Below are positions 40,503 through 45,108 of a stretch of DNA of 64,000 bases, piece after piece. This DNA comes from Alphaproteobacteria bacterium. Lineage in GTDB: Bacteria > Pseudomonadota > Alphaproteobacteria > Sphingomonadales > Sphingomonadaceae. The notes below the pieces were generated by a model. The model saw only the letters and a list, made by a program, of their open reading frames with translations. It had not been told where the DNA came from and ran no database searches. Position numbers and translations under genes: made by a program. The stretch is taken from contig JAFAZW010000006.1 in the NCBI GenBank assembly GCA_019239415.1, positions 1,959-65,958 on the forward strand. Reading direction: 5' to 3'. How positions within the stretch are numbered: position 1 is the stretch's first letter; each line of letters begins with the position of its first letter.

Positions 40503-40517
40503 CTCTCTCTTTCTCCG

Positions 40518-40609
40518 CCCCTCCCTGGAAGGGAGGGGTCGGGGGTGGGTAGCCCGAAGGGCTCGCTTCGCTCGCGACCCACCCCTCGCCCCTCCCTTCC
40601 AGGGAGGGG
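40518..40609. repeat. family-C inverted-repeat element, copy C2 (92 bp)
   Basis: The left terminal inverted repeat is CCCCTCCCTGGAAGGGAGGGGTCGGGGGTGGGT (40518..40550). Its inverted partner is ACCCACCCCTCGCCCCTCCCTTCCAGGGAGGGG (40577..40609). Confidence 0.85.
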
Positions 40610-40614
40610 AGTTG

Positions 40615-41070
40615 TCACAGCATGCCCAGCTCCAGCCTCGCCTCGTCGCTCATCTTGGCGGGGTCCCAGGGCGGGTCCCAGACGAGCTCGACCTCGGCGT
40701 CGCCGATGCCGGGGACCGAGCCGACGCGCAGCTCGACCTCGCCGGGCATCGATTCGGCGACGGGGCAGTGCGGCGTGGTCAGCGTCATCTTGATCTTCGC
40801 GTGGCGCTCGGGCGTGATGGCGACATCGTAGATGAGGCCGAGATCGTAGATGTTGACCGGGATCTCCGGATCGTAAATGTCCTTCAGCGCCTCGATCACC
40901 GCCTCGTAAAGGTCGCCGCCGGGCGCCTCGGCCCCGCTTTCGGGCGGCGTCGCCTTGAGGAAACCTTCGAGATAGTCGCGCTTGCGCTCGAACACGTCCG
41001 AGACGCGCGCCTTGGGGGGCGGCGCGACGCCGTCGACCTCTTCGATCTCGATCCTGCGTTCCTCGTTCAC
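40615..41070 (-). CDS. sufT: SUF system Fe-S assembly protein SufT (DUF59/MIP18 family)
   Basis: IYDPEIPVNIYDLGLIY ... TTPHCP motif. The GTG start overlaps the sufS stop. Confidence 0.85.
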   Translation of the reverse strand: MNEERRIEIEEVDGVAPPPKARVSDVFERKRDYLEGFLKATPPESGAEAPGGDLYEAVIEALKDIYDPEIPVNIYDLGLIYDVAITPERHAKIKMTLTTPHCPVAESMPGEVELRVGSVPGIGDAEVELVWDPPWDPAKMSDEARLELGML

Positions 41071-42344
41071 CCGAAGATCCTCCGAACCCGATCCAGCCCC
41101 GCGACGAGCGCGTCGATGTCGCGCGGACCGTTATAGACGCCGAAGCTGGCGCGGGCGGTCGCGTCGACGCCCAATCGCGCCATCAGCGGCTGCGCGCAAT
41201 GATGGCCGGCGCGGATGGCGACGCGGCTCTCGTCCAATATGGTGCCGACGTCGTGCGGATGCACCCCCTCGACGGCGAAGCTGACGATGCCGGCGCTGTC
41301 CTCGGGGCCGAACAGGCGGACGCTGTTGAGGCCGCGCAGCGCATCCCGCGCCTGCCCCACCAGCGCATCCTCGTGGGCCGCGATCGCCTCGAGGCCGATC
41401 CCTTGCACATAGTCAATGGCGGCGGCGAGGCCGAGAACGCCGACGACGTGCGGCGTGCCGGCCTCGAAGCGCGCCGGCGGCGCGGCGTAGGTCGTCCTTT
41501 CGAAGGTGACCCTGTCGATCATCGCGCCGCCGCCCTGCACCGGCGGCATGGCCGCGAGCAGGTCGCCGCGGCCCCACAGCACGCCGATGCCGGTCGGGCC
41601 GTACAGCTTGTGGGCGGAGAAGACGTAGAAGTCGCAGCCGAGCGCCGCGACGTCGACCGGCATGCGCGGCACCGCCTGGCACCCGTCGAGGAGAAGGAGC
41701 GCGCCGACCTTGTGCGCGATCGCGGCGGCGCGCCGGGCGTCGAGGACCGAGCCGAGCACGTTCGAGACGTGGGCGAGGGCGACGAGCTTGTGCCGCTCCG
41801 TGAGCATCGCTTCGGCCGCCTCGAGGTCGATGCGGCCGTCCTGCGTCAGCGGCGCCACGTCGATGACGGCGCCCGTGCGCTCGGCGACGAGCTGCCAGGG
41901 CACGATGTTGGAATGATGCTCGAGGACCGAGAGAAGGATGCGGTCGCCGGGCTTCAGGAAAGTCCCGCCCCAGCTCTGCGCGACGAGGTTGATCCCTTCC
42001 GTCGCGCCGCGGACGAAGACGATCTCCTCCGGCGCCGGTGCGCCGAGAAAGGCCGCTACCTTGCGCCGCGCGGCTTCGAAGGCGAGCGTCATCTCCGCCG
42101 AGCGCTGGTACACGCCGCGGTGGACGGTGGCGTAGGTCTCGGCATAACCGGCGGTGATGGCGTCGATCACGGGCCGCGGCTTCTGGGCGGTGGCGGCGGT
42201 GTCGAGATAGGCCCAGCCGTCGGGGATGGCGGGGAAGTCGGCGAGGAGGTCGAGGGGGGCGACGTCGATCCCTCTCCCTTTGCGGGAGAGGGTATTCTTC
42301 GCGTCAGCGAAGGGGGGGTGAGGGGACGAGATCGCAGAATCCAT
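41067..42344 (-). CDS. sufS: cysteine desulfurase SufS
   Basis: YLDTAATAQKP, the PLP-Lys context SAHKLYGPTGIG, and RAGHHCAQP are present. The only plausible start is ATG 42344, which lies inside repeat C4 and gives a ~25-aa N-terminal extension. Confidence 0.9.
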   Translation of the reverse strand: MDSAISSPHPPFADAKNTLSRKGRGIDVAPLDLLADFPAIPDGWAYLDTAATAQKPRPVIDAITAGYAETYATVHRGVYQRSAEMTLAFEAARRKVAAFLGAPAPEEIVFVRGATEGINLVAQSWGGTFLKPGDRILLSVLEHHSNIVPWQLVAERTGAVIDVAPLTQDGRIDLEAAEAMLTERHKLVALAHVSNVLGSVLDARRAAAIAHKVGALLLLDGCQAVPRMPVDVAALGCDFYVFSAHKLYGPTGIGVLWGRGDLLAAMPPVQGGGAMIDRVTFERTTYAAPPARFEAGTPHVVGVLGLAAAIDYVQGIGLEAIAAHEDALVGQARDALRGLNSVRLFGPEDSAGIVSFAVEGVHPHDVGTILDESRVAIRAGHHCAQPLMARLGVDATARASFGVYNGPRDIDALVAGLDRVRRIFG

Positions 42345-42404
42345 TGCCCTCACCCTCCCACCGCTTCGCGGCGGGCCCCTCCCTCTCTCGCAAGGGGAGA
42401 GGGG
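42270..42404. repeat. family-C-related inverted-repeat element, copy C4 (135 bp), overlapping the sufD 3' and sufS 5' coding ends
   Basis: The left arm is CCCTCTCCCTTTGCGGGAGAGGG...GGGGGGGTGAGGGG. The right arm is CCCTCACCCTCCCACC...CCCCTCCCTCTCTCGCAAGGGGAGAGGGG. It is an imperfect inverted repeat with hairpin termini. Confidence 0.7.
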
Positions 42405-43598: not shown

Positions 43599-43611
43599 GA
43601 CGGCAGTCGTA

Positions 43612-43774
43612 CGCCCTCGCTCCTCCCCGGAACGGGGAGGGGGACCGCGACGCGGAGCGGCGCGGTGGAGCGGGCTCGGACTCCGATGCGGCGGAGAGGC
43701 CGGCCCCCGCCACCAGCCCCCGCCTTCGGCTACGTCCGGTTCCCCTCCCCGTGCCGGGGAGGAGCAAGGGGGCG
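43612..43774. repeat. inverted-repeat element C5 (163 bp) in the sufC-sufD spacer
   Basis: ~36-bp terminal inverted repeats. The left one is CGCCCTCGCTCCTCCCCGGAACGGGGAGGGGGACCG. The reverse complement of the right one is CGCCCCCTTGCTCCTCCCCGGCACGGGGAGGGGAACCG. Confidence 0.75.
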
Positions 43775-43781
43775 GTGCCGG

Positions 43782-44621
43782 TCACGCGGCGATCTCCGCA
43801 TAGCCTTCGCGCTCCAGCGCGTGGGCGAGCTCGGGGCCGCCGGAGCGGACGATGCGGCCGTCGGCGAGGACGTGGACGAAGTCCGGCACGACGATGTCGA
43901 GCAGGCGCTGGTAGTGGGTGATGAGCAGCACCGCCTTGCCCGGCGCGCGCATGATGCGGTTGATGCCCTCGCCGACGACGCGCAGCGCGTCGATGTCGAG
44001 GCCGCTGTCGGTCTCGTCGAGGACGGCCAGGCGGGGCTGGATGATGCCCATCTGCACCATCTCGTTGCGCTTCTTCTCGCCGCCCGAGAAGCCGACGTTC
44101 ACCGGCCGCTTCAGCATGTCCATGGAGACGCCGAGCGCCTCGCCCTCGGCGCGCGCGACGCGCAGGAAATCGCCCGCCGACAGCTCCGCCTCGCCCCTCG
44201 CGCGGCGCTGGGCGTTCAAGGCCGTGCGCAGGAACTGGACGTTCGAGACCCCGGGGATCTCGACCGGATACTGGAAGCCGAGGAACAGGCCCGCGGCGGC
44301 GCGCGCGTCGGCGGAGAGGGCGAGCAGGTCGACCCATTCTTCGTCGCCCCGGACTTGATCCGGGGTCCACCTTCCTTCTTCGGCGCCGGAAGACAAGGTG
44401 GATGCCGGATCAAGTCCGGCATGACGAGGAACGGCGAACCTGACGGCGCCTTCCGTCACCTCATAGCCTTCGCGCCCGCCGAGCACATAGCCGAGCGTCG
44501 ACTTGCCCGCGCCGTTCGGACCCATGATGGCGTGCACCTCGCCGGCGTTCACGGTGAGCGAAAGGCCTTTCAGGATCGGCTTGCCGGCGACGGTGGCGTG
44601 GAGGTCTTCAATTCTGAGCAT
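43782..44621 (-). CDS. sufC: Fe-S cluster assembly ATPase SufC, carrying a ~32-aa repeat-derived insertion
   Basis: Walker A GPNGAGKST, Q-loop FLGFQYP, signature FSGGEKKR and Walker B AVLDETDSGLD are all intact. It is 279 aa versus 248 aa for E. coli SufC. Confidence 0.92.
   Translation of the reverse strand: MLRIEDLHATVAGKPILKGLSLTVNAGEVHAIMGPNGAGKSTLGYVLGGREGYEVTEGAVRFAVPRHAGLDPASTLSSGAEEGRWTPDQVRGDEEWVDLLALSADARAAAGLFLGFQYPVEIPGVSNVQFLRTALNAQRRARGEAELSAGDFLRVARAEGEALGVSMDMLKRPVNVGFSGGEKKRNEMVQMGIIQPRLAVLDETDSGLDIDALRVVGEGINRIMRAPGKAVLLITHYQRLLDIVVPDFVHVLADGRIVRSGGPELAHALEREGYAEIAA
44337..44431. repeat. family-B nested-hairpin palindromic element inserted in frame inside sufC
   Basis: Core arms are GTCGCCCCGGACTTGATCCGGGGTCCACCTT (from 44343) and AAGGTGGATGCCGGATCAAGTCCGGCATGAC (to 44425). 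The symmetry extends to TTCTTCGTC / GACGAGGAA. It encodes VPRHAGLDPASTLSSGAEEGRWTPDQVRGDEE. Confidence 0.8.
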
Positions 44622-45108
44622 TCGACTCGGTCCTAAGCCCCTCCCCTTCAGGGGAGGGGTTGGGGTGGGGCTTGTTCCATCGGCGGGGCGTTTGACCCAG
44701 CACGATAAGAAGGTGCCGCAGCACCCCGTCCAGGTTTCGCATTACATCACCGTTCGTGATGCGCACGATTCGGTAGCCACGGCAGCCGAGGATGTCGTCG
44801 CGGATCCGATCTTTGGTCTCGTCGTGGGTGTCGCCGTCCACCTCGACGATCAGCGCCCGTTGGGGGCAGAGGAAATCAGCGATGAAGCAGCCAATGACCG
44901 ACTGACGGCGGAACTCATGGCCGCCGAGCTGCCCGTTGGAGAGGTTTCTCCAAAGGCGCTTCTCCGGCTCCGTCGGGTTTCGGCGCATTTCGGCGGCGAG
45001 CGCGTGGAGGCGGCGGAGCTGCTCGACGGACAGGCCCCACCCCAAACCCCTCCCCTGAAGGGGAGGGGCTTCCTTACGCCAGCCCTTGTCCTCGTAGGGA
45101 CCGTTCAT
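44608..45108 (-). CDS. DUF559 endonuclease-domain protein (Vsr/restriction-endonuclease-like fold)
   Basis: The core is [17 protein letters not shown]...[35 protein letters not shown]...[20 protein letters not shown]. The ATG overlaps the sufB stop (ATGA) and the stop lies 12 nt inside sufC. GC3 is visibly lower than in the neighbours. Both ends of the ORF are encoded by the terminal repeats, so the true start may be internal. Confidence 0.78.
44638..45068. mobile_element. 431-bp element: DUF559 gene bracketed by ~34-bp family-C-type terminal inverted repeats (copy C3)
   Basis: The left terminal inverted repeat is CCCCTCCCCTTCAGGGGAGGGGTTGGGGTGGGG (44638..44670). The reverse complement of the right one (45035..45068) is CCCCTCCCCTTCAGGGGAGGGGTTTGGGGTGGGG. 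They are identical except for one extra T. Mobility is inferred, not shown. Confidence 0.5.

Follow-up and report, generated by a model that had tools for sequence, protein, structure and literature searches.

How a packed, essential operon comes to hold a crowd of hairpin-forming repeats, and whether this is an accident of one genome or a property of the operon, are questions raised by a 64 kb stretch of DNA (70.8 % G+C; here called the window) from a metagenome-assembled genome (MAG) of the Sphingomonadaceae whose nearest relatives are Allosphingosinicella MAGs. The minus strand of the window carries the suf operon for Fe-S cluster assembly, in the order Rrf2 regulator, sufB, DUF559 open reading frame (ORF), sufC, sufD, sufS, sufT and A-type carrier, and the original prediction, made from the window alone, was that five repeat-derived insertions make this operon a hotspot. 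Comparison with related loci supports the hotspot as a property of the suf operon across the Sphingomonadaceae, beyond this one genome, and the elements were found at a few recurrent positions (slots) whose contents differ among relatives.

The five features of the operon were real, lay at the places first described and folded far better than shuffled sequences. They comprised C2 (40503–40614) between sufT and the carrier gene; C4 (42270–42403) at the sufD/sufS junction; C5, a long nested palindrome of C-like, hairpin-only subtype (43614–43770, strand unassigned), together with an unclassified 94-nt hairpin upstream of sufD (43500–43600, minus strand), both in the sufC–sufD spacer; an in-frame family-B palindrome in sufC (44331–44435, minus strand); and the DUF559 ORF between sufB and sufC, flanked by inverted repeats. 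Fold z-scores relative to dinucleotide shuffles were −8.7 for C2, −7.2 for C4, −6.5 for C5, −7.4 for the family-B element and −3.6 for the 94-nt hairpin (computed with ViennaRNA, which models hairpins only), and no shuffle matched the native fold of any of the five. A repeat search gave arms that were 89 % complementary for C2 and 83 % complementary over 40 nt for the sufC element (44334–44373 and 44395–44434), whilst the DUF559 flanks were 36-nt inverted repeats with 92 % complementarity. No match was returned by an Rfam gathering search of the whole window, and the 94-nt hairpin had no repeat-family match in approximately 1.4 Mb of comparison DNA; its 3′ half was conserved in three related loci only (L081, L083 and L085).

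A generic detector of long palindromes found eight in the 64 kb. Four of these (C2, C4, C5 and B) were in the suf operon, which makes up 11 % of the window and also holds the DUF559 gene with its inverted repeats; the others were A1, C1, A2 and A3, exactly the four elements that had been predicted for the rest of the window. The hairpin core of family C (searched as CCYCTCCC-N3-8-GGGAGRGG) occurred ten times, as five inverted pairs at 32512/32611 (C1), 40518/40589 (C2), 42271/42382 (C4), 43620/43742 (C5) and 44638/45047 (the DUF559 flanks), so that four pairs fell within the operon. C1 (32512–32631), the sole C element outside the operon, lies 8 kb away between convergent genes and belongs to the C2 subfamily; it and C2 both have the form of paired flanks around a short core. 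Families A, B and C all show the form of REP doublets forming hairpins (REPINs; REP, repetitive extragenic palindromic), namely two short palindromes in inverted arrangement.

Comparison loci were picked by SufD similarity alone, blind to repeats, and further loci were added through exact-protein look-ups. The enrichment set consisted of 34 Sphingomonadaceae suf loci, with 195 kb of operon compared with 311 kb of flanking DNA. Long palindromes numbered 43 in the operons and 19 in the flanks, a 3.6-fold excess per kb (binomial P 9e-7; this and the following P values are optimistic, because related genomes share orthologous elements). The full three-block C motif, defined as consecutive C-rich, complementary G-rich and mirror G-rich blocks with stems of 6–15 nt and loops of 1–6 nt, was found 27 times in the operons and three times in the flanks (14-fold), and C-type palindromes 15 times and once, respectively. 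Non-C palindromes were enriched 2.5-fold (28 operon, 18 flank; P 0.002). The excess was also seen when co-directional gene junctions were taken as the unit, 20 of 138 suf junctions and four of 108 flank junctions bearing a palindrome (Fisher P 0.003), with junctions called by a crude stop-anchored log-likelihood caller based on G+C content at third codon positions (GC3). Element density in the local flanks was therefore 3.6–14 times poorer than in suf, and the predicted hotspot was borne out well beyond the window. The elements were unevenly placed within the operon. The regulator/sufB junction bore a detected palindrome in none of the loci examined and sufS/T was almost never occupied; in the window the coordinates bear out the 4-nt overlaps originally described at both, the stop of the regulator gene (46574–46984, minus strand; Pfam Rrf2 in orthologous loci) overlapping the start of sufB, and the stop of sufS that of sufT. 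A co-directional cluster of eight genes at 26.4–32.5 kb of the window had no internal element. Long palindromes clustered just upstream of the Rrf2 gene, at the 5′ edge of the operon, were seen in L014 (1763–1955 and 3702–3856) and L015 (3363–3581), and were entered as flank in the counts.

The ages of the elements could be compared through the operons closest to that of the window, those of L081 and L083, which share approximately 84 % nucleotide identity with it and have identical synteny; the regions flanking the operon are likewise syntenic among relatives. Opposite C2, both L081 and L083 show a clean gap of 116 nt, with sufT running into the carrier gene through a TGATG overlap; C2 is therefore a recent insertion with a known empty site. 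It consists of two inverted three-block motifs (40518–40550 and 40577–40609) and a purine-rich tail, and this tail is the present Shine–Dalgarno (SD) region of the carrier gene (SufA/IscA-like; 40131–40502, minus strand), so that the insertion either brought or acquired its SD. The sufT/A slot, downstream of sufT (40615–41070, minus strand; DUF59/FeS_assembly_P), is a tight overlap of the TGATG type in at least nine loci, contains C-type elements in the window, L008–L010 and L037, and is occupied by other families in L003, L023, L024 and L039.

C4 is common to the window, L081, L083 and L001 at approximately 85 % identity. It is a C-like nested palindrome that spans both the stop of sufD (42350–42352) and the start of sufS (ATG ending at 42344), and roughly the last 20 codons plus the stop of sufD (42350–43486, minus strand) and the first 25 or so codons of sufS (41067–42344, minus strand) lie within it; given this distribution and content, C4 is evidently old and has become part of both genes. 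The sufD/S slot was tight in 13 of 30 loci and filled in 17, with at least six insert types, always at the stop/start overlap. C5 is absent from L081 and L083, and C5-type elements are present in the sufC/D spacer of six other lineages, among them L002, L006, L012, L085 and L087. In L088 a 58-aa ORF (1612–1788) was seen between sufC and sufD, on a contig whose SufC has a C-type in-frame insert, so this slot can hold small ORFs too. The DUF559 gene is present in L002, L003, L085 and L207; its place is taken by a 71-aa ORF with the same boundaries in L081 and by a different palindrome in L083.

Spacing between sufB and sufC was 42–1167 nt in Sphingomonadaceae compared with 1–18 nt in other alphaproteobacteria, and the contents were DUF559, DUF29, Imm53, signal-peptide or membrane ORFs, or repeats alone. 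C-bearing slots thus differ among relatives in presence or absence, in the family of repeat and in cargo. The same sequences are not conserved in all suf operons, the slots being tight overlaps or occupied by other families in relatives. The original description of five insertions brings together events of very different age: besides the recent C2 there are three, C4, the SufC insert and DUF559, that other species also possess. In the non-sphingomonad alphaproteobacteria L027–L036, sufB/C is tight and a gap of 170–540 nt was seen between sufS and sufT, so the variable junction differs between orders.

The fifth slot lies inside a protein. In the window, codons 63–97 of sufC (43782–44621, minus strand) are the family-B palindrome, and the segment that they encode is predicted to be disordered. 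The 279-aa product retains intact ABC motifs (insert-less homologues have 247 aa), and 35 residues replace three (KGK or DGR; the insert-less form reads ...TF-DG(Q/R)-DLL...). An insert at the identical point was present in all 120 best database homologues (74–91 % identity), among them those of the isolates Sphingomonas rubra and Sphingopyxis soli, and these inserts fall into at least five unrelated palindrome families: RHAGLDPAS...TPDQVRGD (type 1; 74 sequences, the window included), VRAEPVEAL...STSSGRTE (28), RHCEERSDEAIQ...LLRSARND (10), CSGEGRS...GLRRST (six) and the C-type PLPLAGG...PPASGRG (one). Each is a near-perfect palindrome in DNA (−61 to −113 kcal/mol), and more than 120 insert-bearing homologues keep both intact ABC motifs and an uninterrupted reading frame. 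In an AlphaFold2 model the insert lies at the tip of a β-hairpin, with a predicted local distance difference test (pLDDT) score below 50, the ABC fold being otherwise confident.

Insert types were scattered over a neighbour-joining tree of SufC (approximately 245 conserved columns), which required at least 36 changes, a count that is only indicative given the poor resolution of the tree. Common to the inserted alleles, and absent from insert-less SufC, are the outer flanks F-[TLA]-P (left) and E-E-(W)-[IV]-DLL (right), which suggests replacement in place; the pattern is better fitted by such replacement than by five clean independent hits, though this falls short of proof. Remodelling was evident in individual homologues: P0085 (300 aa) has a second insertion nested inside a type-1 insert, P0025 a tandem duplication of the right arm, and P0088 (258 aa) an internal deletion leaving the outer flanks alone. 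Among the 74 type-1 sequences the palindrome arms were 82–86 % conserved, similar to the catalytic core (84 %), compared with 31 % for the hairpin loop and 37 % for the junction residues, which indicates constraint on the palindrome rather than on the peptide. A close precedent is that of the Rickettsia palindromic elements (RPEs; Ogata 2000, as reviewed in PMC10969869), which are palindromes of approximately 100–150 bp placed in frame in housekeeping genes at fold-compatible positions. As that review presents them, RPEs are scattered over many genes; the present inserts belong to another bacterial order, of high G+C content and free-living, and at least five unrelated families occupy one codon of one essential protein in more than 100 lineages, which implies repeated replacement.

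By its block layout, family C represents among sphingomonads the BoxC/PIT/TM intrastrand-triplex repeat (Bachellier 1990s; Hoyne & Maher 2000; Holder et al. 2015, PMC4666352), with which it shares the sequence of C-block, complementary G-block and mirror G-block. The Escherichia coli BoxC/TM motif is CCCTCGCCCC-TTT-GGGGAGAGGG-TTA-GGGTGAGGGG, and that of the window CCCCTCCCC-TTCA-GGGGAGGGG-TTT-GGGGTGGGG. Six full three-block motifs, compared with Table 1 of PMC4666352, were found in the window, two each in C1, C2 and the DUF559 flanks, whilst C4 and C5 lack the third block and have the hairpin only. A G-quadruplex reading of the G-tracts had been considered and became the less likely one, the three-block layout fitting the published triplex motif better. 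The 2015 study describes the repeat as widespread, with 23 copies in E. coli K-12 of which five are inverted pairs, as forming a triplex in vitro and as lying in neighbourhoods where rearrangement is far commoner than at control sites; the study found no associated mobility gene (PMC4666352). Family C resembles BoxC/TM in its frequent inverted pairs, its occurrence across phyla and its link to insertions and deletions nearby and to the replacement of adjoining DNA. It differs in being concentrated approximately 14-fold in one essential operon; in being translated (BoxC/TM is reported to be always intergenic in E. coli), with copies in the ends of the DUF559 ORF and in the SufC loop of L088, and C4 coding for the SufD C-terminus and the SufS N-terminus; and in bracketing a gene, no mobility function having been reported in the 2015 study.

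The bracketed gene occupies the sufB/C slot. The DUF559 ORF (44608–45108, minus strand; 166 aa) is assigned to a Vsr-like PD-(D/E)XK nuclease family (Pfam PF04480, 2e-28; PDB 3HRL, 7e-16). It starts at an ATG overlapping the sufB stop, runs through both flanking hairpins and ends 14 nt into sufC, so that the upstream three-block motif (45035–45071, minus strand) and the inverted downstream one (44635–44670, plus strand) are both translated. A dN/dS ratio of 0.10–0.17 indicates an old gene under purifying selection. Its GC3 is 0.79 compared with 0.89–0.92 for sufB and sufC, and the segment 44640–45030 was seen to be the G+C minimum of the operon (0.61–0.65 compared with 0.70–0.78). The start signals reside in sufB itself (45105–46577, minus strand): its last codons, GGA TGA, contain the ATG, with GGGGAG 6 nt upstream, and in the window, L002, L003, L081, L083 and L085 the conserved C-terminus ...GSVG* is encoded as GGGAGCGTGGGATGA, which combines an SD-like GGGAG with the stop-overlapping ATG. 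Every cargo ORF in the slot begins at this ATG inside GGATGA, and two share as their stop an out-of-frame TGA located 14 nt into sufC; the slot therefore supplies its own expression signals.

Both neighbouring genes have left relics in the cargo. Behind the DUF559 unit, L002 (5770–5817) and L003 (approximately 5545–5595) have a direct copy of approximately 48 nt from the sufB 3′ end. The DUF559 subfamily of the window is single-copy and lies directly behind sufB in most of 120 homologues, over half of which end in a SufB C-terminal relic (for example P0126, P0133 and P0144). This relic was well conserved over dozens of homologues, which is odd for a non-functional remnant. In L086 a 108-aa ORF just upstream of sufC (7673–7999) has the SufC N-terminus repeated at its start (MLNVENLHAALAGKPI...), which shows that the 5′ end of sufC was duplicated at a cargo insertion there. 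Together, the relics of the two gene ends point to recombination anchored in the conserved neighbours. An integron-like cassette was considered for this cargo and dropped, neither an integrase nor a conserved attC-like site having been seen. The sufT/A element of L008 retains the two DUF559 flanks together with the first 15 nt or so of the ORF and is thus an internal-deletion derivative of a DUF559 unit; gene-less paired C copies such as C2 have the form of such derivatives. A derivation of C2 from the operon's own DUF559 copy was rejected, its arms being 91–94 % identical to C1 compared with 73 % to the DUF559 flanks.

The association of the repeat with DUF559 extends beyond sphingomonads. 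A metagenome scan for the C motif returned 120 loci of 38–72 % G+C, of which one was in a suf operon; family C is therefore dispersed and its excess in suf a sphingomonad feature. Related copies in non-suf metagenome contigs likewise indicate that the repeat families are dispersed. Ten of the 120 loci, spanning 42–69 % G+C, contained a DUF559-like ORF; in nine no more than a few hundred nucleotides separated motif and ORF, and six had the motif on both sides, in inverted orientation. The three-block motif brackets a DUF559 ORF in L104, L157, L164, L181, L185 and L207, and in L141 and L166 the DUF559 gene next to the C1/C2 subtype is of another lineage. The DUF559 gene of E. coli, ycjD, has TM copy no. 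9 on its downstream side, at a distance of 168 nt (NC_000913.3, 1,351,204–1,351,760). The association between DUF559 and the repeat is thus statistically established. The paper listing the E. coli copies does not mention the proximity to ycjD (PMC4666352), and the position of ycjD, the fabI–sapF slot, is taken by eefRABCD in other E. coli lineages according to a 2026 study (PMC12817139). Literature searches on DUF559 and ycjD returned nothing on repeats, mobility or suf.

A tentative extension, which we consider possible though doubtful, is that BoxC/TM repeats, familiar for some 30 years with no gene assigned to them, are the cognate flanks of DUF559 genes in a partnership resembling that of REP sequences and REP-associated tyrosine transposases (RAYTs), in which the nuclease would mobilize or maintain the repeats, the unit would have homed at the end of sufB, and suf and the SufC codon would be its landing pad. 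The elements resemble REP, bacterial interspersed mosaic element (BIME) and REPIN–RAYT systems (PMC3116915, PMC3337134, PMC5581495) in having two inverted short palindromes that form a hairpin of approximately 100 nt, in lying between co-transcribed or convergent genes, in having a single-copy gene between two inverted repeats, and in pairing distinct repeat subfamilies with distinct lineages of that gene. Unlike in those systems the flanked gene is of the PD-(D/E)XK type (DUF559) rather than a Y1 HUH transposase, and, unlike extragenic REPINs, one slot here is within coding sequence. No RAYT was seen beside any element, in a window that was not scanned exhaustively. Miniature inverted-repeat transposable elements offer a second parallel, in that inverted repeats are shared with a gene-carrying parent from which internally deleted forms descend (the L008 element; C1 and C2 as paired flanks), although here the parent gene, DUF559, is not a recognized transposase.

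We favour, with belief and doubt about evenly balanced, the reading that permissive suf slots (sufB/C, sufC/D, sufD/S, sufT/A and the SufC loop codon) have been repeatedly filled, emptied and refilled by selfish REPIN-like palindromes, with cargo ORFs added at sufB/C; the window would be a single moment in this turnover. The end of sufB (GGATGA after GGGGAG) and the out-of-frame TGA early in sufC would offer a ready start, SD and stop, so that a promoterless selfish gene such as DUF559 could be expressed with the operon. Hairpin or triplex DNA would stall replication and provoke local rearrangement, and a filled slot might in this way draw further insertions and replacements. Selection would spare only those insertions that preserve the essential genes; junction elements can themselves supply a stop, SD and start, and within SufC an insert would be tolerated solely at the disordered β-hairpin tip. 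Since the flanking sequences are essential and highly conserved, imprecise deletion would be lethal, and filled alleles may spread between species by homologous recombination. The anatomy of the slots, their enrichment and their turnover are documented by the comparisons above; the nuclease activity, mobilization and mRNA effects that enter such a scheme are predicted.

Several points weigh against this reading. The density control consisted of local flanks (at most 10 kb on each side of a locus, with a further 57 kb from the window) rather than whole genomes and may be unrepresentative of the genome, and orthologous elements in related genomes were counted more than once and are not independent. 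No convincing target-site duplication was found at C2, where filled and empty sites could be compared, or at other insertions, although a duplication of 1–2 nt would escape notice, so classical transposition is not demonstrated. DUF559 has a predicted Vsr-like nuclease fold and activity and is not a known transposase, many operons have C elements without DUF559, and C2, with arms closer to C1, was not seeded by the operon's own DUF559 copy. The conserved palindrome arms of SufC and the long-lived C4 could equally mean a selected RNA or DNA structure.

The last point leads to the alternative, raised in the original prediction and in our judgement unlikely, that the hairpins are retained adaptively, acting as REP-like barriers to 3′–5′ exonucleases or as translational gates that set the amounts of SufB, SufC, SufD, SufS, SufT and the carrier. 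There is precedent in REP-mediated mRNA stabilization and in the iscRSUA operon of E. coli, another Fe-S operon with strong structure between cistrons, where the iscR–iscS intergenic structure lets iscR survive RyhB-induced decay (Desnoyers 2009, as described in PMC12533949). The suf elements sit exactly on cistron boundaries and supply stops, SDs and starts, GGGAGGGG being SD-like and pairing with the anti-SD-like CCCCTCCC; C4 predates the divergence from L081, L083 and L001 and has been retained, and the SufC arms match the ABC core in conservation. The iscRSUA structure, however, is described in that source as fixed and with a demonstrated role, whereas the suf structures vary and are dispensable across species: every slot is a tight overlap in many relatives, so that no element is required and a required function is disfavoured. 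Unrelated families share one slot, a coding loop is hit by the same elements, the sufB/C cargo ORFs (DUF29, Imm53, nuclease) are functionally unrelated, and previous studies of BoxC/PIT found neither promoter nor terminator activity nor an influence on expression (PMC4666352). A regulatory role at the mRNA level is possible, unnecessary for the data and hard to square with the empty slots. The alternative also put forward originally, that the operon is a preferred target or offers structured DNA, gains support: family C is by its layout a triplex repeat tied to rearrangement (PMC4666352), and new elements land on old. In its pure form, in which heavy stress-induced transcription exposes single-stranded DNA to hairpin transposition and neither retention nor a resident source plays a part, it seems to us rather improbable. 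It would account for the enrichment of several unrelated families, non-C palindromes included, and for independent insertions at the same junctions in distant lineages; yet regulator/sufB and sufS/T are on the same transcript and almost never hit, the eight-gene cluster of the window has no internal element, and no RAYT or IS200-type gene was seen, though no systematic look was made.

Little probability attaches to a third account, in which DUF559 is a free-standing homing endonuclease for the conserved sufB 3′ end, the C hairpins are by-products of insertion or repair and the rest of the hotspot is coincidence. Vsr-like homing endonucleases exist (I-Bth0305I). Like free-standing homing genes, DUF559 is a small nuclease gene beside a conserved essential gene, sporadic among close relatives (found in L002, L003 and L085 but not in L081 or L083) and atypical in codon usage, its GC3 being below that of host genes; the single-copy position after sufB, the SufB relics and the duplicated sufB end in L002 and L003 fit as well. 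Homing leaves the non-C families, the SufC loop and the other three junctions unexplained, however, and its cleavage step is predicted only. The hairpin–DUF559–hairpin unit also occurs in non-suf contexts of other bacteria, and, unlike in homing endonuclease genes, the repeats exist gene-less elsewhere and the target end is duplicated. Finally, it might be argued that there is no real hotspot, the operon having been picked by eye from one window and judged against a locally unrepresentative control of approximately 10 kb per side with counts inflated by orthologous elements. This we regard as highly improbable: the excess recurs, at different junctions and with different families, in loci picked by SufD similarity alone, and the test per junction is significant too.

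The kinds of repeat involved are already known, as BoxC/TM repeats, REPIN-like doublets and RPE-like in-frame palindromes. What appears new is that repeats are concentrated, throughout a bacterial family, in one and the same essential operon, that at least five families occupy a single SufC codon and that BoxC/TM motifs bracket DUF559 genes; none of this was reported in the literature found on DUF559, ycjD and the triplex repeat. Hairpin repeats can persist and turn over inside an essential, packed operon, and even an essential enzyme, at a few reproducible positions, and the suf slots form a natural system for the study of site permissiveness and of the replacement of one repeat by another. 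In the SufC loop, palindromes clearly create new protein segments in bacteria other than Rickettsia, and many independent natural variants are there for comparison. The link between DUF559 and BoxC/TM offers a testable candidate enzyme for a widespread repeat without a partner, and a function for a large DUF family; if the partnership is true, it would be a second system of the REP–RAYT type, with a landing pad in SufC that keeps generating new peptide loops. For annotation, the elements move start and stop codons (sufD/sufS) and make spurious or chimeric ORFs, such as DUF559 genes ending in a SufB relic.

Outside the operon, family A was represented by REPIN-like doublets (CCGTCATCCCGGC...GCCGGGATGACGG) at 25307–25390, 51754–51840 and 62334–62418. 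A CGTCAT start with an ATGACG or GCGACG end was common to families A and B, to type 3 and to an element in a spacer of L001, which hints at a shared superfamily or recognition end. Directly after the carrier gene, the window has a 90-aa ORF (39848–40120). An ORF of 89–90 aa without a Pfam match was seen at the same position in L081, L083 and L085, so that the ORF of the window may be a further conserved member of the operon.

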